The translations under genes were made by a program, and so were the position numbers. From NCBI RefSeq assembly GCF_988243305.1, contig NZ_OZ547136.1: 64,000 nt of DNA; one strand, 5' to 3'. This document shows, in pieces, positions 10,407 through 49,459 of the stretch. How positions within the stretch are numbered: the first letter of the stretch is position 1; every line of letters starts with the position of its first letter. The notes under the pieces were generated by a model. That model saw nothing but the letters and a program-made list of their open reading frames with translations. It was not told where the DNA came from and did no database searches.

Positions 10407-11390
10407 TTACCTTCCCGCTCTCCAGGCCACATCCCGCAGCGCCGATCGCGCAGCCTCACTGATACCACCTAACTGAAAAAATCCGTGGATAACGCCAAGG
10501 TAGCGTTGGCAGGTGCATTGCACTCCTTGCCCTGTCATGCGGTGATACAACGCTTCACCTTCATCGCAAAGTGGGTCGTATTCAGCGGTAATGATATGTA
10601 CAGGTGGCAAGCCATTGAAATCATCGCGCCAAAGAGGGCTGGCTTCAGGATGCCTGCGTTCAATGCCTGGCAGATACATCTCAAAGCCGCTCAGTAAAGT
10701 GTCGCGTGTGATGATGTAATCGTGACCATTGCGTATGTAGCTTTCGAAATGCGCAGTCGCATCAAGCATGGGATAAATTAAGATGAGTTGTGCCGGTTGC
10801 CACTCGCCAGCACGCTTTAATCGCAAAGCAGTTACCAGCGCCAGATGTCCGCCCGCACTGTCACCGGCAAGAGTTATCCGTTGTTTATCAACGCCGAGTC
10901 GTTCGGCGTGTTGCCAGACTAATTCTGCACCTCGTTGTGCATCATCATGGGCGGCGGGGAAAGTCTGTTCCGGTGCCAGCCGATACTGGACGGCAATAAC
11001 CCGACATTGCCCGTAATAGGCTAACTGGCGCAGCTGGTTGTCGTGAGTTGCGAACCCGCCGCTAACAAAACAGCCACCGTAGTAATAAATTATCGTCGGG
11101 AGTAATGTCGGGGCATTCAGCGGTGACACTATTCGTAAGATCATCCCTTCAAGTTCGATAGTCTGAATATCTACCCGCGTTTCTGTCTCACCCGCAAGGA
11201 CAGCGCTGGCGATATAGCCCTCCCTGCGCTGCGCAATACTTTGTTGACGCGATGAGGGGCGACCCGCAGCGATAAACTCTTCGACTAACTCTGCAATTCC
11301 TTTTTCCAGTGCCATAGTAGAACTCATTTTGCTGTATGAATGTACAGTTTTATACACCCGTTTTTGCTGGATGGATACAGGGAAATTCAC
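10407..11390 (-). CDS. Alpha/beta-hydrolase fold-3 esterase/lipase (Aes-like)
   Basis: YGGCFVSGG oxyanion region and GDSAGG nucleophile-elbow motif; 327 aa. Confidence 0.8.
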   Translation of the reverse strand: MNFPVSIQQKRVYKTVHSYSKMSSTMALEKGIAELVEEFIAAGRPSSRQQSIAQRREGYIASAVLAGETETRVDIQTIELEGMILRIVSPLNAPTLLPTIIYYYGGCFVSGGFATHDNQLRQLAYYGQCRVIAVQYRLAPEQTFPAAHDDAQRGAELVWQHAERLGVDKQRITLAGDSAGGHLALVTALRLKRAGEWQPAQLILIYPMLDATAHFESYIRNGHDYIITRDTLLSGFEMYLPGIERRHPEASPLWRDDFNGLPPVHIITAEYDPLCDEGEALYHRMTGQGVQCTCQRYLGVIHGFFQLGGISEAARSALRDVAWRAGR

Positions 11391-11855: not shown

Positions 11856-12146
11856 ATGGATAAGGCACTTTTTGAGCGGTTGACTCACAGCATGGCCCAG
11901 ATGAATGAAATTATTGAAGGAACGCGACACCCTTCACGGACTTTTGAAGTTGATGCTATGAAAATCAAAGAAATACGCCGCGCTTCAGGGTTGTCACAAT
12001 CTAAATTTGCCGAACTTATTTCCGTAAGCGTAGACACGTTGCGTAACTGGGAGCAGGGGCGACGTTCACCGACTGGGCCTGCAAAGGCTTTGCTGCGAGC
12101 GATTGCCAATGATCCGCAACATGTGCTGCAGGCACTTAACCGTTAG
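11856..12146 (+). CDS. HigA-like XRE-family HTH antitoxin
   Basis: 96-aa ORF with HTH (SQSKFAELISVSVDTLRNWEQGRR); immediately follows toxin. Confidence 0.65.
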   Translation: MDKALFERLTHSMAQMNEIIEGTRHPSRTFEVDAMKIKEIRRASGLSQSKFAELISVSVDTLRNWEQGRRSPTGPAKALLRAIANDPQHVLQALNR

Positions 12147-12222
12147 AGGCATGGTTATGCCATACAGAAAGCACCAGCATTCAGAACTCCTATGAAAGCG
12201 GCATAGTGCCGCCTGCTCAGGA
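12146..12222. repeat. ~80-bp repeat copy B (degenerate hairpin)
   Basis: Direct repeat of 10328-10406 (gccatacagaaagcaccagcattcagaactcct.tgaaagcggcatagtgccgc). Confidence 0.7.
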
Positions 12223-12230
12223 GTTTTACT

Positions 12231-16535: not shown

Positions 16536-19500
16536 TTACACCTTTTCCACATTCACAAGGAAGGACTTAAACTCTGGCGTCTGCGTGTTCGCATCACCAA
16601 CGAATGGCGTTAACGTATTGGCAATAAAGCCTTTTTTCGCAACACCTTCATAGCCCCAGTGAATCGGAATACCGATGGTATCGATATCTTTGCCGTTCGC
16701 TTTCAGCGTGCGAATACGTTTGGTCACCACCGCTTTGGCTTTGATATAGCCACGGTTGGAGGAGACTTTCACTGTATCGCCCTGGGCAATGCCAAGTTTA
16801 TTCGCCAGCGACTCACCGATTTCCACAAACTGCTCTGGTTGCAAAATCGCGTTCAACAGCGCGTGTTTGGTCCAGTAGTGGAAGTGCTCGGTCAGACGAT
16901 AGGTGGTTCCGACATACGGGAACTTATCGGCTTTACCCAATGCTTCGGCGTCGTCTTTAAAGATACGTGCAGCCGGGTTCGAGATAACGTTTGGATGCAG
17001 CGGGTTAGTTCCCAGCGGCGTTTCAAACGGCTCGTAGTGTTCCGGGAACGGACCTTCCGCCATCTTATCGAGGGCAAACAGACGCCCCATGCCTTCCTGC
17101 TGCATGATAAACGGCCCGACGCCGCTACCCGGAGGTGCTGCGCTGTAGTCCGGAATATCCCAGCCGGTCCACTTAGTGCCGTCCCATTTCAGCAACTGAC
17201 GCTTCGGATCCCACGGGTTACCCTGCGGATCTGCGGAGGCGCGGTTATACAGAATGCGGCGGTTAAGCGGCCATGCCCATGCCCAGCCCAGCGTGTTACC
17301 GAGGCCAGACGGATCGGCGTTATCACGACGCGCCATCTGGTTACCTTCTGGCGTCCAGCTACCGGCGAAAATCCAGCAGCCACAGGAGGTCGTACCGTCA
17401 TCGCGCAGTTGGGCGAACGAGCTAAGTTGTTGGCCTTTCTTGACGATAACCGCACCGGTTGCCGGATCGGTAATATCGGCCAGCGCCTTACCGTTGCTCT
17501 CCATCGCCACTTCTTCCGACTTCGGCTCATGCGGGATGGCGTAGTTCCAGGTCATGTTCAGCACCTGGTCCGGGTTCGCGCCACCCTGTTCGGCATACAT
17601 CTTGCGCAAGCGCAGGAAGATACCGGAGAGGATCTCGCCATCAGTCAGCGCAATCCCCGGGGCGTCCGCACCTTTCCAGTGCCACTGCAACCAGCGACCG
17701 GAGTTAACTATTGAACCGTTCTCTTCCGCGAAGCAGGTCGATGGCAGACGGAACACTTCGGTCTGGATCTTCGACGAGTCAACTTCGTTCAGCTCACCGT
17801 GGTTCTGCCAGAAGTTAGAGGTTTCAGTGTTCAGCGGGTCGATGGTGACGAGGAACTTCAGTTTCGACAGACAACCGATCACTTTGTTTTTGTTCGGGAA
17901 TGAGGCAACAGGGTTAAAGCCCTGGCAGATATAGCCATTGACTTTGCCCTCTTTCATCATCTCGAAGTATTGCAGGACGTCGTAGCCTTTATCCCACTTC
18001 GGCAACCAATCAAAGCCCCAGCTGTTTTCTGCCGTCGCTTTATCACCAAAGAAGGCCTTCATCATGGAGACGAAGAATTTCGGGTAATTGCCCCAGTAGT
18101 TAACCTGGCCTTCCAGCAGCGGTTTCGGCGTGTTGGCGGCAAGGTAGGTTTGCAGATCGGTCTGCTTCTCGCTTGGCAGCGTCATGTAACCTGGCAGGCT
18201 CTGCGACAGCAGCCCCAGGTCGGTCAGCCCCTGAATATTGGAGTGACCGCGCAGGGCGTTAACGCCGCCGCCAGCCATCCCCATATTGCCGAGCAGCAGC
18301 TGGATCATCGCCATCGTACGAATGTTTTGCGCACCAATGGAGTGTTGCGTCCAGCCGAGGGCGTAGAGGAACGACGCTGTTTTATCGTGAGCACTGGTTT
18401 CGGCGATGTATTCGCAGACTTTCAGGAACGCGTCTTTTGGCGTACCGCAGATGTTTTCAACCACATCTGGCGTATAACGGGAAACGTGCTGTTTCAGCAA
18501 GTTCCACACGCAACGCGGATGTTGCAGCGTGGTATCGCGTTTGGCGAAGCCGTTTTCGTCCAGTTCGTAAGTCCAGGAGGATTTATCGTACTTGCGTTTT
18601 TCCGCGTCGTAGCCGGTGAACAGGCCATCTTCAAAGCCGTAATCCTCACGCACGATCAGGCTGGCGTTGGTATAGGCCTCGGTGTATTCGCGGTTGAATT
18701 TTTCATTGTTCAGCAGGTACAGCAATACGCCTGACAGGAAAGCAATGTCAGTCCCGGAACGAATAGGGGCATAGTAGTCAGCCACCGCCGCCGTACGCGT
18801 AAAGCGAGGATCGATCACAATCAGCTTCGCGCCGTTGTGAATTTTGGCTTCCATCGCCCAGCGGAACCCGACCGGGTGAGCTTCAGCGGCATTACCGCCC
18901 ATCACCACGACGAGGTTGGCGTTCTTGATGTCGACCCAGTGGTTGGTCATCGCACCGCGACCAAATGTTGGAGCAAGACTTGCTACCGTTGGTCCGTGTC
19001 AGACACGCGCCTGGTTGTCGACCGCGAGCATCCCCAGCGCGCGGGAGAATTTTTGCGTTAAATAGCCGGTTTCGTTACTCGACGCGGAAGCACACAGCAT
19101 CCCGGTGGAGAGCCAGCGGTTAACGGTCACGCCTTCGGCGTTTTGCGCAATGTAGTTAGCATCGCGGTCTTCTTTCATCAGTTTGGCGATGCGATCAAAC
19201 GCCTCTTCCCAACTGATTTGCTGCCATTTATCAGAACCTGGCGCACGGTATTCCGGAAACTTCAGACGGCTTTCGGAGTGGATGAAATCCACCAGGCCAG
19301 CGCCTTTCGGACAAAGTGCACCGCGGTTGACCGGGTGATCCGGATCGCCTTCGATATGGAAGATAGATGCTTTGGCGTTTTTTGCTCCGTCACCGAGGCT
19401 GTACATCAACAGCCCACAGCCTACGGAACAATAGGTGCAGGTATTACGGGTTTCGCGGGTGCGCAGCAGTTTATACTGCCGGGTTTCCGCGAGTGCTACG

Positions 19501-19586
19501 CTGGGTGCAAAACCCAGTGCCGCTGCCGTGGTGCCTGCCATACCGCCAGCGCAGATCTTAAAGAACTGCCTTCTGCTGACCTGCAT
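16536..19586 (-). CDS. fdoG: Formate dehydrogenase-O catalytic subunit (selenoprotein; UGA at 18999-19001 read as Sec)
   Basis: ORF-track ORFs 18999..19586 and 16536..18950 are in the same frame, separated only by TGA; Tat signal SRRQFFK at N-terminus; sequence DNQARV-U-HGPTVASLAPTFGRGAMTNHW. Confidence 0.9.
18945..19001 (-). other. Selenocysteine UGA codon plus downstream SECIS-like hairpin
   Basis: mRNA immediately 3' of UGA: GGACCAACGGUAGCAAGUCUUGCUCCAACAUUUGGUC can fold as stem-loop. Confidence 0.6.
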
Positions 19587-19779: not shown

Positions 19780-20613
19780 GTGAAAAAAACACAGCAAAAA
19801 GAAATCGAAAATGTGACAAATATCACAGGTGTTCGTCAAATTGAGTTATGGCGGCGTGATGATTTACAACACCCACGGTTAGATGAGGTCGCGGAAGAAG
19901 TTCCCGTTGCGCTGGTCTACAACGGCATTTCGCATGTAGTGATGATGGCGTCGCCCAAAGACCTTGAGTACTTTGCGCTCGGTTTTTCGCTTTCCGAGGG
20001 GATAATAGAAAGTCCGCGCGATATCTTCGGCATGGATGTCGTTCCATCCTGTAATGGTCTTGAAGTACAAATTGAGCTTTCCAGCCGCCGCTTTATGGGG
20101 TTGAAGGAGCGCCGCCGGGCGCTGGCGGGACGTACGGGCTGTGGCGTATGCGGCGTGGAGCAACTTAATGACATCGGAAAACCGGTGCAGCCGCTACCGT
20201 TCACCCAGACGTTTGGTCTCAACAAACTGGATGATGCATTACGTCATCTCAACGATTTTCAGCCAGTGGGGCAGCTGACTGGTTGTACTCACGCCGCTGC
20301 CTGGATGTTGCCATCTGGCGAACTGGTCGGCGGGCATGAAGACGTGGGTCGCCATGTGGCGCTGGATAAACTGTTAGGCCGCCGGTCACAAGAAGGGGAA
20401 AGCTGGCAGCAAGGTGCGGTGCTGGTTTCCAGCCGTGCCAGTTATGAAATGGTGCAAAAGTCAGCGATGTGTGGCGTAGAGATTTTGTTTGCGGTGTCTG
20501 CCGCGACCACACTTGCTGTAGAAGTGGCTGAACGCTGTAATTTGACGCTGGTGGGCTTTTGTAAACCGGGCCGGGCAACGGTTTATACCCATCCGCAGCG
20601 TTTGAGCAATTAA
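19780..20613 (+). CDS. fdhD: Sulfurtransferase FdhD
   Basis: 277 aa; divergent from fdoG; synteny. Confidence 0.9.
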
Positions 20614-20662: not shown

Positions 20663-21325
20663 GTGAATTTTATTATTTTATTTATAGACAAAACGCATGT
20701 AGTGGCGTTAACGCCTGCGCTGCAACCTATTGATGGCGTGGCGGTGGGTTATATTGATGCTGCCGTGGCGTTGGGTAATACCATTAACGAAATGGATAAA
20801 TATTACACCCAGGAAAATTATAAAGACGATGCGTTTGCGAAAGGGAAAACGCTGCACCAGACATTCTTAAAAAATCTTGAAGCCTTTGAACCTGTAGCAG
20901 AATCTTATCATGCGGCGATTCAGGAAATTAACGATAAGCGCCAGCTTGCGGAACTGAAAAATATTGAACAAAGAGAAGGGAAAACATTCCACTACTACTC
21001 TCTGGCAGTCATGATTTCAGCGAAACAAATTAATAACCTGATTTCGCAAGAGAAGTTTGATGTTGATGCGGCAATGAAGAAAGTCTCTGAACTGGAAACG
21101 CTGGTGGCGCAGGCCAAAGAAGCGGATAAAGGCGGTATGAATTTCTCGTTCATTAATTCGGCAGACCAGTATCAACTCGAGGCTAAAAAATATGTTCGCC
21201 GCATCAGAGATAAAGTCCTGTACTCTGACTGGGATAAAGAGCAACTTCAGGACGCAAACTCAATCTGGATGGCCGAAGACTCATTTCCCGAGAGCATTAT
21301 GCGAGTACAACGAAATGGTCGATGA
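20663..21325 (+). CDS. yiiG: YiiG-like protein, apparently N-terminally truncated (possible pseudogene)
   Basis: Frame is closed by TAA at ~20639; ORF starts with GTG directly after fdhD terminator with no SD; K-12 YiiG recalled as ~351 aa. Confidence 0.45.
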   Translation: MNFIILFIDKTHVVALTPALQPIDGVAVGYIDAAVALGNTINEMDKYYTQENYKDDAFAKGKTLHQTFLKNLEAFEPVAESYHAAIQEINDKRQLAELKNIEQREGKTFHYYSLAVMISAKQINNLISQEKFDVDAAMKKVSELETLVAQAKEADKGGMNFSFINSADQYQLEAKKYVRRIRDKVLYSDWDKEQLQDANSIWMAEDSFPESIMRVQRNGR

Positions 21326-33193: not shown

Positions 33194-33254
<61 letters not shown>

Positions 33255-33255
33255 G

Positions 33256-34481
<1,226 letters not shown>

Positions 34482-34538
34482 TGATAAGACGCTATCTGAA
34501 CTGCACCCCAAATGTTGGACATAATCTGACATCTGAAG

Positions 34539-35069
34539 GTGCAGTTTATGAAACATTCATTTGAAGTAAAACTTGCCGCTGTAAATCATTACCTGGCCGG
34601 TCATGCTGGCATCATTTCTACGGCAAAACTCTTTCAACTTTCTCACACCAGCCTCTCACACTGGATTAATCTTTTTCTTCTTCACGGTCCTCGGGCACTG
34701 GATTGCAGACACAGGCGTAGCTATTCTCCTGAAGATAAACTTTGCGTGGTTCTTTATGCTCTCGGGCATTCTGAGTCTCTACCCCGGGTAGCTGCCCGGT
34801 TTAACATTCCCAGCCACAACACGGTTAAAAACTGGATAAAAGGCTACCGCAAATCTGGTGATGAGGCCTTTATCAGGCGCAGGAAGGAGAAAAGCATGAC
34901 CCGTTCTGATGATACCCATGAAAACGAGGCAAACATGACGCCGGAAGAGATGAAGAATGAGCTGCGTTATCTTCGCGCAGAAAATGCATATCTGAAAGCC
35001 ATGCAGGAGCATCTCCTGGAAAAAAAGCGCCAGGAGCTGGAGAAAAAACGAAAGTCATCCGGAGCCTGA
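34539..35069 (+). CDS. IS3-family transposase OrfA (HTH + leucine zipper)
   Basis: 176-aa ORF; slippery A_AAA_AAG at ~35020-35026. Confidence 0.8.
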   Translation: MQFMKHSFEVKLAAVNHYLAGHAGIISTAKLFQLSHTSLSHWINLFLLHGPRALDCRHRRSYSPEDKLCVVLYALGHSESLPRVAARFNIPSHNTVKNWIKGYRKSGDEAFIRRRKEKSMTRSDDTHENEANMTPEEMKNELRYLRAENAYLKAMQEHLLEKKRQELEKKRKSSGA

Positions 35070-35173
35070 GATGCGGACACTGCCAGTCTGACCTGTTAAA
35101 GGCTGCAGGGCTGGCCAGAAGCACGCTGTACTACCAGCTGTCACTGCAGAAGGCTAAGGACAAGTATGCTGAT

Positions 35174-35928
<755 letters not shown>

Positions 35929-38790: not shown

Positions 38791-38875
38791 ATCAATTACT
38801 TACATGCAATCAAAAGTAAAAACAGGTACTTATCGAAAGCTGTAAGGGTTTGGAGCGGTTTCAAAATTTCTTGAG

Positions 38876-42146: not shown

Positions 42147-42418
42147 GTATTCGTATTGAAATTGGCGAACGTTATGTCGTTACCAGTGACAGCTTTCAGT
42201 TTATTCTCCACGAGAAAAAGAGAGCGGAAAGCGGTAAAAACGCCGGTCAGGAATGGCTGGCGGTGGTTGGTTATTACCCGAAATTAGGCCAGCTCGTTTC
42301 CGGCCTGATGCATCACGATATTCTGACCGGAAGCGCAAAATCTTTTGCTGATTTAAACGCGCAGGTTGAGCAACTCAGCAAGCGTTGTTCAGAGGCTTTT
42401 GGCTCATATGGCCGTTAA
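42143..42418 (+). CDS. Hypothetical early protein (orf83-position)
   Basis: 91-aa ORF overlapping gpA start. Confidence 0.45.
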   Translation: MSIRIEIGERYVVTSDSFQFILHEKKRAESGKNAGQEWLAVVGYYPKLGQLVSGLMHHDILTGSAKSFADLNAQVEQLSKRCSEAFGSYGR

Positions 42419-44684
42419 AGCCTCCGGGCGTTTTGTCCCTCCGTCAGCATTTACCGCAGGCACCGGTAAGGCGTTTACCGGTGCTTATGCATGGAACGCG
42501 CCACGCGAGGATGTCGGGCGCGAAAGACCTCTTACACGTGACGAGATGCGTCAGGTGCAAGGTGTTTTATCCACGATTAACCGCCTGCCTTACTTTTTGC
42601 GCTCGCTGTTTACTTCACGCTATGACTACATCCGGCGCAATAAAAGCCCGGTGCACGGGTTTTATTTCCTCACATCTACTTTTCAGCGTCGTTTATGGCC
42701 GCGCATTGAGCGTGTGAATCAGCGCCATGAAATGAACACCGACGCGTCGTTGCTGTTTCTGGCAGAGCGTGACCACTATGCGCGCCTGCCGGGAATGAAT
42801 GACAAGGAGCTGAAAAAGTTTGCCGCCCGTATCTCATCGCAGCTTTTCATGATGTATGAGGAACTCTGCGATGCATGGGTTGATGCGCATGGTGAAAAAG
42901 AATCGCTGTTTACGGATGAGGCGCAGGCTCACCTGTATGGTCATGTTGCTGGCGCTGCACGTGCTTTCAATATTTCCCCGCTCTACTGGAAAAAATACCG
43001 TAAAGGACAGATGACCACGAGGCAGGCATATTCTGCCATTGCCCGCCTGTTTAACGATGAGTGGTGGATTCATCAGCTTAAAGGCCAGCGTATGCGCTGG
43101 CATGAGGCGTTACTGATAGCTGTCGGGGAGGTCAATAAAGACCGTTCTCCTTATGCCAGTAAACACGCCATTCGTGATGTGCGTGCGCGCCGCCAGGCAA
43201 ATCTGGAATTTCTTAAATCGTGTGACCTTGAAAACAGGGAAACCGGCGAGCGCATCGACCTTATCAGTAAGGTGATGGGCAGTATTTCTAATCCTGAAAT
43301 TCGCCGGATGGAGCTGATGAACACCATTGCCGGTATTGAGCGTTACGCCGCCGCAGAGGGTGATGTGGGGATGTTTATCACGCTGACCGCGCCGTCAAAG
43401 TATCACCCGACACGTCAGGTCGGAAAAGGCGAAAGTAAAACCGTTCAGCTTAATCACGGCTGGAACGATGAGGCATTTAATCCAAAGGATGCGCAGCGTT
43501 ATCTCTGCCGTATCTGGAGCCTGATGCGCACGGCATTCAAGGATAATGATTTACAGGTCTACGGTTTGCGAGTCGTCGAGCCACACCACGACGGAACGCC
43601 GCACTGGCATATGATGCTTTTTTGTCATCCACGCCAGCGTAACCAGATTATCGAAATCATGCGTCGCTATGCGCTCAAAGAGGATGGCGACGAAAGAGGA
43701 GCCGCGCGAAACCGTTTTCAGGCAAAACACCTTAACCGGGGCGGTGCTGCGGGATATATCGCGAAATACATTTCAAAAAACATCGACGGCTATGCACTGG
43801 ATGGTCAGCTCGATAACGACACCGGCAGGCCGCTGAAAGACACTGCAGCGGCTGTTACCGCATGGGCGTCAACGTGGCGCATTCCGCAATTTAAAACGGT
43901 TGGCCTGCCGACAATGGGGGCTTACCGTGAACTACGCAAATTGCCTCGCGGCGTCAGCATTGCTGATGAGTTTGACGAGCGCGTCGAGGCTGCACGCGCC
44001 GCCGCAGACGGTGGTGATTTTGCGCTGTATATCAGCGCGCAGGGCGGGGCAAATGTCCCGCGCGATTGTCAGACTGTCAGGGTCGCCCGTAGTCTGTCGG
44101 ATGACGTTAACGAGTACGAGGAAGAAGTCGAGAGAGTGGTCGGCATTTACGCGCCGCATCTCGGCGCGCGTCATATTCATATCACCAGAACGACGGACTG
44201 GCGCATTGTGCCGAAAGTTCCGGTCGTTGAGCCTTTGACTTTAAAAAGCGGCATCGCCGCGCCTCGGAGTCCTGTCAATAACTGTGGAAAGCTCACCGGT
44301 GGTGATACTTCGTTACCGGCTCCCACACCTTCTGAGCACGCCGCAGCAGTGCTTAATCTGGTTGATGACGATGTTATCGAATGGAATGACCCGGAGGTCG
44401 TGAGGGCGCTCAGGGGCGCATTAAAACACGACCGGAGAACGCCAAACCGTCAGCAAAGAAACGGAAGCCCGTTAAAACCGCATGAAATTGCACCATCGGC
44501 CAGACTGACCCGGTCGGAACGATTGCAAATTACCCGTATCCGCGTTGATCTCGCTCAGAACGGTATCAGGCCGCAACGATGGGAGCTTGAGGCGCTGGCG
44601 CGTGGCGCGACCGTAAATTATGACGGGAAACCTTTCACTTATCAGGTCGCTGATGATTGGCCGGGATTTTTGTTACCCATTTGA
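42408..44684 (+). CDS. A: P2 gpA-like rolling-circle replication initiator
   Basis: From MAVKASGRFVPPSAF…; HWHMMLF HUH-type motif. Confidence 0.9.
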   Translation: MAVKASGRFVPPSAFTAGTGKAFTGAYAWNAPREDVGRERPLTRDEMRQVQGVLSTINRLPYFLRSLFTSRYDYIRRNKSPVHGFYFLTSTFQRRLWPRIERVNQRHEMNTDASLLFLAERDHYARLPGMNDKELKKFAARISSQLFMMYEELCDAWVDAHGEKESLFTDEAQAHLYGHVAGAARAFNISPLYWKKYRKGQMTTRQAYSAIARLFNDEWWIHQLKGQRMRWHEALLIAVGEVNKDRSPYASKHAIRDVRARRQANLEFLKSCDLENRETGERIDLISKVMGSISNPEIRRMELMNTIAGIERYAAAEGDVGMFITLTAPSKYHPTRQVGKGESKTVQLNHGWNDEAFNPKDAQRYLCRIWSLMRTAFKDNDLQVYGLRVVEPHHDGTPHWHMMLFCHPRQRNQIIEIMRRYALKEDGDERGAARNRFQAKHLNRGGAAGYIAKYISKNIDGYALDGQLDNDTGRPLKDTAAAVTAWASTWRIPQFKTVGLPTMGAYRELRKLPRGVSIADEFDERVEAARAAADGGDFALYISAQGGANVPRDCQTVRVARSLSDDVNEYEEEVERVVGIYAPHLGARHIHITRTTDWRIVPKVPVVEPLTLKSGIAAPRSPVNNCGKLTGGDTSLPAPTPSEHAAAVLNLVDDDVIEWNDPEVVRALRGALKHDRRTPNRQQRNGSPLKPHEIAPSARLTRSERLQITRIRVDLAQNGIRPQRWELEALARGATVNYDGKPFTYQVADDWPGFLLPI

Positions 44685-44940
44685 GTAAAAATACAGCGTG
44701 ATTTTATATGTCTTTGAATGGATTATGCGAAACACCTCTAAGGTAGATGAGGAGCAATAGCGTGTTGAATCAGAAGGCTAAATTGTATTGAATCGTTAGC
44801 ATGTAATTGAAGGCAGCTATTTGATTCGAGTCATAAAAGAGCATCTATTTCGGTTAATAAAACCATTGCGAGTGACTTTATGTCGAAGCATAATTCATCT
44901 CGAGCGAAGTCTTGCTAGTCTTTCATCGGATTGATGACGG

Positions 44941-44975
44941 GCGCAAAAAAACCACCCTGGCAGGTGGTTTTTTTG
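44941..44975. terminator. Bidirectional intrinsic terminator (A-run/hairpin/T-run)
   Basis: aaaaaaaccaccctggcaggtggtttttttg. Confidence 0.6.
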
Positions 44976-44976
44976 T

Positions 44977-45090
44977 TTGAAGCATACTAAAGAAAAATAC
45001 TTACATGGATATTACTGACGTTTACTGACAAACCACTCGGACTACCATATGGATAGCCAAAGAGGGCCAGAACGAGAATGCAGTAATAGC
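44977..45090 (-). CDS. Candidate small protein (37 aa, MKKCYYCILVLALFGYPYG…) with strong SD
   Basis: AGGAGG 4-5 nt upstream of ATG on minus strand; below ORF-track size cutoff; ends at bidirectional terminator. Confidence 0.3.
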
Positions 45091-45822
45091 ACTTCTTCAT
45101 ATCGCCTCCTGTAAGCAGAGGGCAATTTCCGCCGATATATGCGCTTCTAAGGCGGAGTGACTATTGAGCGAAGTCTTGCCCTGAAATAATGCTCTGTTTA
45201 AACGCAAAGTGATCTGGCATATCACCGAACAGAGGACCTGAACAACACAACATATAGTATGTCGTTGTTTCTGGTTGCATTTTATGTTGTGTAATACTGG
45301 TTTTGCATCAAGGATGTTTGAGCTTTTTTTGATATAGCTCAAAGTAAAAAGCAGAGACTACGGATGATAAGGTCTTGAAAGCAATGTAAATTTTTTAAAG
45401 TTGTGAGTGGCTAGAAATGCACAGTTTCAATATGGCGGATTTAAACAAGTAATTAAAAATAGCGACACAAATTCCAATAAAATCATTAAGTTGCGTTTTC
45501 TGTGGAAACTTCGGTGACTCTGAAATTTTCTTTTAGTATCGCTGAGGTTTAACAACTCGCTGCGCAAGTAGTTAGTGTTTTTTTTAACTCAATATTCTGA
45601 TTTATAAGGTTTTTTATAAATCGTGGGCTGGTTGCGCATATTCATCTCGTGTTATCAGCAAAGATAAGCTCTATATGCAGAACTGAATGCATATATGATG
45701 TCGAAAATGTTATGGGAAAACGTGGATTAGTGTTATAGTAATGGCTGAAAAACAGCCTTGACATAAAATAACAACTGTGATATGGCTGTGCATACTTAAC
45801 TTTTTTAACGTAGGAGGCAACC

Positions 45823-46308
45823 ATGAGCTATGCAGCTAAAAAACTGCTTGACCGCTATTGGGATCGCCGACTACCTGTCGATCCGTTTAAGCTTGCTAAA
45901 GCGTGGGGTGCTCGTGTTGAAGCACTTGAGGAATCGGCTTATAACAACGATGGGTTAAGCGGTCTGGCTGTCATCAAAAAGGGTGTCCATAGGATTTATT
46001 TTGATTCTAGTGAACATTCTAATCGTCAACGTTTTACTGTTGCACACGAGTTAGGTCATCATGTGCTGGGGCATACCCAGGACGGAGAGTACCATCGGGA
46101 TAATGTCGGGAATTATTCAACAGGTGCTCGTGATTACCGTGAGGTTGAAGCAAACAAGTTTGCTGCTGAGTTGTTAATGCCTGAGTCTGCTATACGTCAA
46201 TTGGTATCCAGAGAAGGTATTGATAGCACTTTGAGATTAGCAAGCATCTTTAATGTATCAGAAGCCGCTATGCATTGGCGCTTAAAGAGCTTAGGAATGG
46301 CTTATTAA
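45823..46308 (+). CDS. ImmA/IrrE-family Zn metallopeptidase (DUF955-like)
   Basis: HEXXH motif HELGHHVLGH; strong SD AGGAGG; AT-rich cargo gene at P2 tin/old position. Confidence 0.7.
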   Translation: MSYAAKKLLDRYWDRRLPVDPFKLAKAWGARVEALEESAYNNDGLSGLAVIKKGVHRIYFDSSEHSNRQRFTVAHELGHHVLGHTQDGEYHRDNVGNYSTGARDYREVEANKFAAELLMPESAIRQLVSREGIDSTLRLASIFNVSEAAMHWRLKSLGMAY

Positions 46309-46374
46309 TTAGCCTTTAACTTTTAACCTGTTTAAAATCACCTTTACGTTTGTACATGTAAGGGTGATTTTTTT

Positions 46375-46974
46375 ATGGCTGATATTGATTTATCTGGACA
46401 GTCCCCAGAGCAAGGAACCACTCCTAAGGGCGATTTAGATCCTGATATCCTTATAAGGCGAGATAGACGGGATGGTATAGAGCGTAGAAGTATGCGATTA
46501 GTGCTCTCTGCCGTTGTGCTTTGTTTTGCTTGTACATTTCTATGGCAGGGGCTTAACTTTGCTTTGGCTGTTGGAAATGGCTTGCTGGAAGCGAAAAGCA
46601 GTATTGCCGCAGCGATAACACAAAAAGTAGATACACAAACTTGTGTTTCAGCAGAAAAATGTTCTGCTTTATCTTCGGATCCGAAGATGGCTGATGAGAG
46701 GATAACACCATCTTCAGACACTAATAAAGTTAGAAAATCTATTTCTGGTTTATCCACCGATTGGTTATCGGCCAGTTCTCTAATAGCTATTGTTGCATTC
46801 ATCCTTGGTGTGGGTTTAACTTTGCTTTTGACTCTTCTTAAATCAGCATTTCAACACCCGACAGATAAAGACTTTAGAACAAAGTCGACATCTAATACTA
46901 TTGAGTTGGCCACGCCAATCAGTGAATTAATAATTGGTGTTCTGAATATAATTAAAGACAAACTATCTAAGTAA
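46375..46974 (+). CDS. Small membrane protein (two predicted TM helices), co-directional with the metallopeptidase
   Basis: Hydrophobic stretches LVLSAVVLCFACTFLWQGLNFALAVG and LIAIVAFILGVGLTLLLTLL; 66-nt gap after upstream gene. Confidence 0.5.
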   Translation: MADIDLSGQSPEQGTTPKGDLDPDILIRRDRRDGIERRSMRLVLSAVVLCFACTFLWQGLNFALAVGNGLLEAKSSIAAAITQKVDTQTCVSAEKCSALSSDPKMADERITPSSDTNKVRKSISGLSTDWLSASSLIAIVAFILGVGLTLLLTLLKSAFQHPTDKDFRTKSTSNTIELATPISELIIGVLNIIKDKLSK

Positions 46975-47056
46975 AGCATTAGTTGTGATTTTTTATTGGT
47001 TTTAGTGATAATACATCTCCAGTACTTATTGTTACTGGAGAGTATTTTTAGTCGTT

Positions 47057-47998
47057 TTATATTTTTAATGTTAGTGAATGATATTCACGAGAGTTCACGT
47101 TCGATGTGATGTAATCGGGGGCGTTAACACCAAGAATCGCAACGAGTAATCGGCAAATTAAAGCCTGCATTTGTTGTAATATGTCATCTCCATATTGATA
47201 ATTGTTAATAGTGGTAAAGCCAAGTGGTTGACCATGAAACATAGCTTCATGAAAGTTTTCATTGCGGATGTTTGTAATGTTTTTTTTACCTGTAACCCAT
47301 GATGGTCGTGGTATTCCATAAGTTTTGCAGATCCACTTCAAGCGCCTGGAGTGATTTAGAGTCTTTTCTGTACACTTGTTCTTTTCTGCCCATGTTAAAG
47401 CAAAGCAACTATCCAGTGCCATATAAAGATACTGGAATTTTTCGAAGCTAAGGTATTGTGGGTTTTGGGATAAAAATAGTGCATGCACTATTGCTGCTAT
47501 ATTTATTGGTGCGTGTTTGGTTTTTGTCTCGCTAGACATGTATTTGAGTGCTAATTCTATAACCTCTTTTTCAGAGCACTTGACCAGAATAAAGTCAGTT
47601 AATTTGCTGGGTTTTATTGGGGTTGCGTCTAAAAAACCGGCATCAGTAGTTGTTAATCTTATCCCTTTGAAAAAAGACAGACACCACACAGCAAAATTGA
47701 GAGTTTCTAGTGAAGATGTATTTTTTAATTTTAGTGAGTGTGTTTTGGGTAAGCCAAATACTCGTTGGCTAAAAGGCATTGTGGATATGCCTCCATTGAG
47801 GTTATATACTTCTTGGTTTCCTGGGTATATCCAACCGTTAATAACATTTCTGTGATTGTTTATAAGATTTGTTTTTTCCGCTAGACCGGGTAAAGTAAGT
47901 AAAGAAAAATCATCAGTTTCAACGTTAACTTCTACTGGATAGTATCCAAACTCAGCTTCAATATCATTGGATTGCTGTTCGTCAACTTTACCTTGCAT
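47057..47998 (-). CDS. Hypothetical protein, 313 aa, AT-rich, no recognised domain
   Basis: ORF with GGAG SD; transcribed from cos side toward gpA. Confidence 0.5.
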   Translation of the reverse strand: MQGKVDEQQSNDIEAEFGYYPVEVNVETDDFSLLTLPGLAEKTNLINNHRNVINGWIYPGNQEVYNLNGGISTMPFSQRVFGLPKTHSLKLKNTSSLETLNFAVWCLSFFKGIRLTTTDAGFLDATPIKPSKLTDFILVKCSEKEVIELALKYMSSETKTKHAPINIAAIVHALFLSQNPQYLSFEKFQYLYMALDSCFALTWAEKNKCTEKTLNHSRRLKWICKTYGIPRPSWVTGKKNITNIRNENFHEAMFHGQPLGFTTINNYQYGDDILQQMQALICRLLVAILGVNAPDYITSNVNSREYHSLTLKI

Positions 47999-48236
47999 AC
48001 ATTGCTCCGGTCAAAAATAGGCTCGATAATTCTCGTAAGCCTATCATGTTCGCAAAGTATCCATACCTGTGGATTTTGTAAATTTAAGTTGATTTGTCAT
48101 TAAATAAGCCGTTGCATGCAACAAGTGAATGTTTTTGCATGCGTCGGGGATGTCCGTTCAGGCTGCGTGCGGTCAGGACTGGTGCGGATCCATAGTATCT
48201 ATGCAACTGCATTAAAACCGCCCCATGAAGCGGGCG

Positions 48237-48255
48237 GGCGAGGCGGGGAAAGCAC
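48237..48255. other. P2-type cos site (19-nt cohesive end GGCGAGGCGGGGAAAGCAC)
   Basis: Exact 19-mer as recalled for P2 cos, in GC-rich region upstream of Q. Confidence 0.65.
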
Positions 48256-48424
48256 TGCGCGCTGGCGGTGGTGCTGATTTTATTTTTTCAGCGTCTCAGC
48301 GCGTCGTGACGGCGTTTGGATTGTGCGCCGGGGCGTTGGTGTGTCTGTGGGGTGTTTTGTGCGGTGGTGAGCGTGTGAGGGCGTGATGACGGGGTGTAAA
48401 AAAGCCGCCCGCAGGCGGCGATGT

Positions 48425-49459
48425 TCAGCCGTTGTCGGTGTCCAGTGAGTAGTTTTTAAAGCGGATGACCTCCTGACCGAGCCAGCCGTTTATCTCGCGG
48501 ATCCTGTCCTGTAACGGGATAAGCTCATTGCGGACAAAGACCTTTGCCACTTTCTCAATATCACCCAGCGACCCGACGTTCTCCGGCTTGCCGCCCATCA
48601 ACTGAAAAGGGATGCGGTGCGCGTCCAGCAGGTCTGCGGCGCTGGCTTTTTTGATATTAAAAAAATCGTCCTTCGTTGCCACTTCACTGAGCGGGATAAT
48701 TTTAATGCCGTCGGCTTTCCCTTGCGGGGCATAGAGAAACAGATTTTTAAAGTTGTTGCGGCCTTTCGACTTCACCATGTTTTCGCGGAGCATTTCGATA
48801 TCGTTGCGATCCTGCACGGCATCAGTGACGTACATGATGTATCCGGCATGTGCGCCGTTTTCGTAATACTTGCGGCGGAACAGCGTGGCCGACTCATTCA
48901 GCCAGGCAGAGTTAAGGGCGCTGAGATATTCCGGCAGGCCATACAGCTCCTGATTAATATCCGGCTCCAGCAGGTGAAACACGGAGCCGGGCGCGAAAGG
49001 TGTCGGCTCATGGAAGGACGGCACCCACCAGTAAACATCCTCTTCCACGCCACGGCGGGTATATTTTGCCGGTGAGGTTTCCAGTCTGATGACCTTACCG
49101 GTGGTGCTGTAACGCTTTTCCAGAAACGCATTACCGAACACCAGAAAATCCAGCACAAAGCGGCTGAAATCCTGCTGGGAAAGCCACGGGTGCGGAATAA
49201 ACGTTGAAGCCAGAATATTACGTTTGACGTAAATCGGTGAGCTGTGATGTACGGCAGCACGCAGGCTTTTTGCCAGACCGGTAAAGCTGACCGGTGGCTC
49301 ATACCATCTGCCGTTACTGATGCACTCGACGTAATCCAGAATGTCACGGCGGTCGAGTACCGGCACCGGTTCACCAAAGGTGAATGCCTCCATTTTCGGG
49401 GCGCTGGCGGTCATTTTTTTTGCCGCAGGTTGCGGTGTTTTCCCTTTTTTCTTGCTCAT
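48425..49459 (-). CDS. Q: Portal protein gpQ
   Basis: 344 aa P2 Q-like. Confidence 0.9.
   Translation of the reverse strand: MSKKKGKTPQPAAKKMTASAPKMEAFTFGEPVPVLDRRDILDYVECISNGRWYEPPVSFTGLAKSLRAAVHHSSPIYVKRNILASTFIPHPWLSQQDFSRFVLDFLVFGNAFLEKRYSTTGKVIRLETSPAKYTRRGVEEDVYWWVPSFHEPTPFAPGSVFHLLEPDINQELYGLPEYLSALNSAWLNESATLFRRKYYENGAHAGYIMYVTDAVQDRNDIEMLRENMVKSKGRNNFKNLFLYAPQGKADGIKIIPLSEVATKDDFFNIKKASAADLLDAHRIPFQLMGGKPENVGSLGDIEKVAKVFVRNELIPLQDRIREINGWLGQEVIRFKNYSLDTDNG

Follow-up and report, generated by a model that had tools for sequence, protein, structure and literature searches.

The 64-kb stretch of DNA analysed here (the window) carries fdoG, the gene for the alpha (catalytic) subunit of formate dehydrogenase-O, on its minus strand, together with the genes for the beta and gamma subunits and the divergently oriented accessory gene fdhD (Table 1), in the order fdhD / fdoG-fdoH-fdoI-fdhE. 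An earlier note on this DNA had described fdoG as a gene split by a read-through UGA and had left the strand unstated. The reading frame comprises 1016 codons and a stop as judged by translation, and is preceded by a Shine-Dalgarno sequence, AAGGAG, located 6 nt 5' of the ATG. Among its 1017 codons, the translation shows stops at codons 196 and 1017 only, the first of these being followed within the coding sequence by a bacterial SECIS element.

Table 1. Features of the fdo locus in the window, with the evidence for each.
Feature	Coordinates	Strand	Evidence
fdoG, formate dehydrogenase-O alpha (catalytic) subunit	16536..19586	-	Translation, TIGR01553, K-12 b3894, 1kqf_A
Tat (twin-arginine) signal peptide, residues 1-33, MQVSRRQFFK...VALA/E	19488..19586	-	Sequence inspection; predicted cleavage site
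In-frame UGA, codon 196, Sec196	18999..19001	-	Frame, TIGR01553, 1KQF, K-12, published MS
Bacterial SECIS inside coding sequence, Rfam RF01989 SECIS_3	18946..19004	-	Covariance model, covariation
Apical SelB-binding minihelix (predicted), nt 15-32 from U of UGA	18970..18987	-	MFE fold, alignment
SECIS lower stem and spacer, nt 4-14 with nt 38-46	18956..18998	-	MFE fold
fdoH, beta (Fe-S) subunit, 300 aa	15621..16523	-	TIGR01582, 478.7 bits; named fdoH in strains C4 and K-12
fdoI, gamma (cytochrome b556) subunit, 211 aa	14989..15624	-	NF007924
fdhD, accessory sulfurtransferase for formate dehydrogenase, 277 aa, divergent	19780..20613	+	TIGR00129, 337.5 bits; annotation

Identity of the gene and its neighbourhood

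Comparison of the window protein (with its two halves joined) with the two E. coli K-12 paralogues revealed identity at 1013 of 1016 amino acids (99.7%) to FdoG (b3894) and 77% amino acid identity to FdnG (b1474). This alignment, which the earlier note had proposed as a check, bears out its naming of the gene, as do the FdoI-type neighbour and the synteny of the locus. K-12 fdoG has the same length (3051 nt) and the same locus architecture, and likewise has TGA as codon 196; the two genes agree at all 57 nt following the UGA, and their SECIS elements do not differ at any nucleotide. The two genes differ at 57 nucleotides and three amino acids (window/K-12 I417V, A483T and K689S), with none of the differences falling in the SECIS or near Sec196 and the three substitutions lying far from the active site.

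Both halves of the protein match the NCBIfam equivalog TIGR01553, the N-terminal half at profile positions 1-194 and the C-terminal half at positions 196-1009; the C-terminal 820 aa by themselves reach 1277.9 bits, exceeding the cut-off of 814.2, and the N-terminal 195 aa contribute 271.4 bits. The FdnG structure in PDB 1kqf_A aligned over residues 1-1015 with 1902.7 bits. The twin-arginine motif SRRQFFK occupies residues 4-10, within the predicted signal peptide, and cysteines are present at residues 50, 53, 57 and 92, which are ligands of the 4Fe-4S cluster (PMC3636253). With this full-length homology, UGA196 followed by His197, and the Tat and cysteine motifs, the predicted product is a selenocysteine-containing formate dehydrogenase of the TIGR01553 type. 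The paralogue FdnG (b1474, 1KQF) shares Sec196, the Tat signal, C50, C53, C57, C92 and the fold template with the window protein; it differs in its locus (yddG-fdnGHI-yddM) and in having other partner subunits. Expression of fdnG is induced by nitrate and anaerobiosis, rather than being aerobic.

Regarding the neighbouring genes, the fdoI product scores 453.3 bits with NF007924 (FdoI type) and 243.6 bits with NF007558 (FdnI type). In the closest complete genome, that of strain C4 (99.8% identity across fdoG), one side of the fdo operon is occupied by rhaBADM, a gene for a porin, a yiiG pseudogene and fdhD, and fdoG-fdoH-fdoI-fdhE come next, while in K-12 the fdnGHI genes lie between yddG and yddM. 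Judged from orthology with b3894 and from the gene order fdhD / fdoGHI-fdhE, the gene is fdoG and not fdnG. In RefSeq (PGAP) annotation the orthologue is named 'fdnG' in every E. coli genome among the matches listed, next to genes named fdoH and fdoI.

Elsewhere in the window, a 2.7-kb insertion relative to strain C4, consisting of IS1397 and IS621, lies between yiiM and cpxA, and a P2-like prophage adjoining cpxP extends from position 38794 to the end of the window. The variable region of this prophage contains a gene encoding an M78/CapP-like peptidase and two ORFs that match no family.

The in-frame UGA at codon 196

The minus-strand sequence around codon 196 reads GCG CGT GTC TGA CAC GGA CCA ACG GTA GCA AGT CTT GCT CCA ACA TTT GGT CGC GGT GCG ATG, the TGA corresponding to TCA on the plus strand and being followed directly by CAC (His197). 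The mechanical ORF list contains two ORFs on either side of it, one of 195 aa (18999..19586, minus strand) terminated by TGA196, and one of 804 aa (16536..18950, minus strand) beginning at the first ATG, which encodes Met212; the 16 open codons between them (18951..18998, HGPTVASLAPTFGRGA) are outside both listed ORFs. The segment lengths of both ORFs are divisible by 3, which places them in one common frame. The description of the two ORFs in the earlier note as in frame around the TGA is thus correct, and the frame mismatch that it had named as refuting evidence was looked for between the two fdoG ORFs and found to be absent.

UGA196 occupies position 195 of TIGR01553, the sole profile position between the two matched halves, and lies opposite position 196 of FdnG in 1KQF, a non-standard residue printed as X. 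A TGA at codon 196 is common to the window fdoG, K-12 fdoG and K-12 fdnG. The window gene encodes exactly the peptide VU196HGPTVASLAPTFGR, which was identified by MS/MS in FdoG/FdnG of the K-12-derived strain MC4100, where cysteine was never found at position 196 and where translation ended at codon 196 in selC mutants, which have no Sec-tRNA(Sec) (PMC3636253). The designation of FdoG as a selenoprotein, given in the earlier note as established knowledge, accords with this decoding of codon 196 as selenocysteine in published mass spectrometry.

Structure of the SECIS element

With gathering thresholds applied, an Rfam search covering all 64 kb of the window yielded a single hit, RF01989 (SECIS_3) on the minus strand, with 84.3 bits (gathering score 63) over model positions 1-59 of 59 and an E-value, referring to the whole window, of 1.4e-18. 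The hit closely coincides with the interval 18945-19001 where the earlier note had placed a sequence capable of forming a stem-loop, and both this score and the minimum free energy (MFE) fold, which includes U17, G23 and U24, answer its call for a SECIS structure prediction in the affirmative. Membership of SECIS_2 (RF01988, the fdhF type) was rejected because the score, 28.1 bits, lies below the gathering threshold of 70; the element is thus one of the FDH-N/O type. Given that the two protein halves match consecutive parts of one profile, and given the Rfam E-value, the observation lies beyond chance.

Numbered from the U of the UGA as nt 1, the 46-nt segment beginning at the UGA has as its ViennaRNA MFE structure a hairpin of -12.7 kcal/mol. 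In its lower stem nt 6-13 pair with nt 38-46 and C14 is unpaired, and with nt 4-14 as the spacer the apical minihelix begins 11 nt after the UGA. The minihelix consists of the pairs G15-C32 and G16-C31, the bulged U17 (18985), a stem formed by A18-A22 and U26-U30, and the loop G23 (18979), U24 (18978) and C25 (18977). The stability of the hairpin was no better than that of dinucleotide shuffles, with z = 0.21 for 61 nt, -1.37 for 46 nt and -0.64 for 49 nt. The folding energy being uninformative, the SECIS structure rests on the covariance model and on covariation; excess hairpin stability is not a defining SECIS feature in the literature.

The E. coli SECIS has an apical stem-loop located 11 nt past the UGA, with the bulged U17 and with G23 and U24 in the loop, and U17 and G23 touch SelB (reviewed in PMC8659212). 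By its model score, spacer, U17, G23 and U24, and the covariation described below, the predicted hairpin of the window is a bacterial SECIS. It shares the UGA, the 11-nt spacer, the minihelix with bulged U17 and the loop nucleotides G23 and U24 with the SECIS of E. coli fdhF (RF01988), and its apical loop/stem of 18 nt is one nucleotide longer than that of fdhF. The hairpin of fdhF, the experimentally dissected prototype of the element in E. coli, has an apical loop/stem of 17 nt.

Conservation and covariation around the UGA

Among 5433 E. coli records, 5320 carry the 91-nt segment around the UGA at 99% identity or more, compared with only seven E. coli records in which the whole of fdoG reaches that level. 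Between the paralogues, the window fdoG and K-12 fdnG have 75% nucleotide identity overall; the longest stretch without a difference covers 71 nt beginning at codon 195, the runner-up being 37 nt. Synonymous-codon conservation, pooled over 108 loci with full flanks among the matches listed, was 0.62 in the SECIS and 0.50 in the flanks; this contrast is modest and the flanks are noisy, the paralogue and within-species comparisons being clearer.

For comparison with other species, one genome per species was scanned with the pattern TGA CAY GGN CCN ACN GTN GC (encoding U-H-G-P-T-V-A), which demanded the TGA and partly fixed the 5' arm of the resulting alignment. This gave at least 121 matches on at least 120 DNA stretches. 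Of the 121 matches listed, 117 lie in genes of other species that are FdoG-like on both sides of the TGA; the remaining four, which have in-frame stops and no similarity to formate dehydrogenase, are chance matches and were excluded. The 59-mer is the same as that of the window in 26 of the 117 loci among the matches listed, the genera and species concerned including Citrobacter, Enterobacter, Klebsiella, Yersinia, Photorhabdus, Providencia and E. albertii.

The 72 distinct 59-mers from these 117 listed loci could be aligned without gaps, and the apical helix is paired in 97.8% of cases. Among these 72 sequences, the pair of alignment columns 21-33 occurs as GC (54), AU (14) and CG (2) and the pair 24-30 as AU (49), CG (19) and GC (2), so that double changes are found at two apical pairs (37 cells). 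The covarying columns fall on the third codon positions for one Val and two Ala residues and on the first codon position for a Leu; the compensatory changes in the apical helix are synonymous, and protein coding therefore offers no explanation for them. The covariation score was matched by none of 500 shuffles, and in a control in which the 3' partners were slid by one to three columns pairing fell to 26-49%. G23 and U24 (G26 and U27 of the alignment), although outside the search pattern, are invariant in the 72 distinct sequences from the matches listed, U24 being the third position of a codon.

The window sequence is a full-length match to SECIS_3 (RF01989), the Rfam family of FDH-N/O-type genes, but its lower stem may be in another register. 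Pairing across the alignment is 85.2% of cells in the Rfam register and 84.0% in a continuous stem shifted by one base, so that pair counting does not separate the two. In the Rfam register the window sequence has two lower-stem non-pairs, A/C at 8-48 and A/G at 12-44; the continuous stem with A12-U45 suits the window (E. coli) sequence better, whereas most other taxa suit the Rfam register.

Decoding of UGA196 and alternative readings

Thus, the window almost certainly contains an intact fdoG of an Escherichia coli chromosome in which UGA196 is recoded as selenocysteine with the help of a SECIS located 3' of it. In this gene UGA196 would specify selenocysteine as the active-site residue of formate dehydrogenase-O, with the adjoining 3' part of the mRNA, which is itself coding, folding as a SECIS hairpin whose lower stem would keep the minihelix at its 11-nt distance from the UGA. 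Domain IV of SelB would bind the apical minihelix (U17, G23 and U24), and SelB would compete with release factor 2 by bringing to the ribosomal A site Sec-tRNA(Sec), which derives from selC and is produced by SelA and SelD. Recognition of the SECIS by SelB bound to Sec-tRNA(Sec), with recoding of UGA against release factor 2 competition, is described for this system (PMC8124441), and the binding of SelB and the insertion of selenium at fdoG may be expected from this literature. No sel genes were found within the window, nor any tRNA genes, and hence no selC, in its 64 kb. Among 5426 complete E. coli genomes, selAB is present in 5425 and selC in 5424, and the presence of the sel genes in the genome to which the window belongs can be presumed from the species.

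The two separate ORFs of the mechanical list, and a downstream hairpin whose folding energy is not significant, could be taken to mean that TGA196 arose by true nonsense mutation or by an error of sequencing and that the strain carries fdoG as a pseudogene. This is scarcely credible, since K-12 fdoG and fdnG carry the same TGA196, a TGA is found in 117 formate dehydrogenase loci of many genera among the matches listed (the TGA being required by the pattern), the 91 nt around it are conserved at 99% or more in those 5320 of 5433 E. coli records, no further stop or frameshift occurs across 1016 codons and a SECIS follows directly after codon 196; the pseudogene is effectively refuted. Equally hard to credit is read-through of UGA196 without SelB and SECIS, for example by near-cognate insertion of Trp or Cys. 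The inserted amino acid cannot be read from sequence alone, but a full-length SECIS with the SelB determinants is present, and in the published mass spectrometry selenocysteine and never cysteine was seen at position 196, with termination there in selC mutants (PMC3636253).

Slightly less remote, but still highly improbable, is that the gene is the nitrate-inducible formate dehydrogenase-N gene fdnG instead of fdoG. Its orthologue carries the RefSeq label 'fdnG: formate dehydrogenase-N subunit alpha' in all matches listed, the top NCBIfam model, TIGR01553, bears the name of the FDH-N alpha subunit, and the SECIS and the selenocysteine peptide are the same in both paralogues. These points are set against an amino acid identity of 99.7% with K-12 FdoG versus 77% with K-12 FdnG, a gamma subunit that scores 453 bits as FdoI type versus 244 bits as FdnI type, and the neighbours fdoH, fdoI, fdhE, fdhD and the rha operon, which are those of the fdo locus and not of K-12 fdnGHI between yddG and yddM; moreover, the curated K-12 record calls the gene fdoG. 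An intact fdoG with a selenocysteine codon at position 196 hence remains the reading adopted here.

Implications for annotation and for the SECIS family

Sec196 and the SECIS of fdoG are already known from E. coli K-12, and the window adds nothing new to them. The feature is, as the earlier note had stated, an ordinary one, and it is relevant only to annotation, the gene matching K-12 fdoG with its Sec196 and SECIS. Gene calling in which every UGA counts as a stop produces fragments of 195 aa and 804 aa, or a pseudogene, instead of the 1016-residue FdoG, and the proper annotation is a single CDS with a selenocysteine translation exception at codon 196. Since the gene of the fdo locus bears the RefSeq (PGAP) label 'fdnG', counts of FDH-N and FDH-O that are based on names will be wrong.

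Regarding the FDH-N/O-type SECIS as a family, the lower stem might exist in two forms, a continuous stem with A12-U45 in Enterobacterales and the Rfam register with bulged C14 in most other Proteobacteria, and the 71-nt identity of fdoG and fdnG and the identical 59-mers of many enterobacterial genera might then result from selection for one SelB-tuned variant, possibly together with gene conversion between the paralogues. This proposal is speculative and on balance rather unlikely. If true, a lower-stem register specific to Enterobacterales would refine a known element in a minor way and would not amount to a new system.

Gene naming and flanks of the formate dehydrogenase-O locus

Regarding nomenclature, PGAP gives orthologues of the alpha-subunit gene at the fdo locus (16536-19586) the name "fdnG: formate dehydrogenase-N subunit alpha" in every E. 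coli genome among the RefSeq matches listed, while the neighboring genes in these same genomes are labeled fdoH and fdoI, and the curated K-12 record names the alpha-subunit gene fdoG. The label fdnG at this locus is a naming artefact of the NCBIfam equivalog TIGR01553, which does not split the paralogues fdoG and fdnG.

Strain C4, the best-matching complete E. coli genome over fdoG, is annotated with a YiiG-family pseudogene, frameshifted and N-terminally truncated, in the interval between fdhD and a carbohydrate porin gene. Flanking the counterpart of the C4 nadS and alpha-beta hydrolase genes are two segments of approximately 105 nt (10305-10408 and 12121-12225), each of which also matches, in a separate megablast alignment (87.6% identity), the C4 site collinear with the other; this pattern implies that the two segments would constitute a dispersed direct repeat.

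Insertion elements and prophage

The insertion between yiiM and cpxA combines IS1397 (IS3 family) and IS621 (IS110 family). Among 5426 complete E. coli genomes, only two carry 80% or more of this composite at a single location. Strain N3, the one of the two that was examined, has it elsewhere, at the ybaL-gsk locus. At the yiiM-cpxA site, IS1397 occurs on its own in several strains.

The P2-like prophage begins with the integrase gene, followed by genes for Cox, the replication endonuclease, portal, terminase, capsid, lysis and tail proteins. It is absent from the cpxP site of strain C4, which is elsewhere collinear with the window, and is present at the same site in strain EC1 (97% covered, 99.1% identical).

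Features of the window outside the fdo operon
Feature	Position	Strand	Remarks
Region matching the C4 YiiG-family pseudogene	20663-21325	+	C4 record 77216-77906; pseudogene status from C4 annotation
IS1397 + IS621 composite insertion	33200-35928		Between yiiM and cpxA; 2.7 kb, relative to C4
P2-like prophage	38794-64000		Adjoins cpxP; continues beyond window end
Replication endonuclease gene	42366-44684	+	Borders variable region
Prophage variable region	44685-48424		Between replication endonuclease and portal genes; three ORFs
Predicted M78 ImmA/IrrE peptidase ORF	45823-46308	+	PADLOC capP match, E = 1e-30
ORF, 199 aa	46375-46974	+	In variable region; no family match
ORF, 313 aa	47057-47998	-	In variable region; no family match
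Portal gene	48425-49459	-	Borders variable region

Searches of Pfam and PADLOC with the 199-aa and 313-aa ORFs of the variable region returned zero matches. In P2-like phages, the position between the replication endonuclease and portal genes serves as a hotspot for cargo genes of anti-phage defence.
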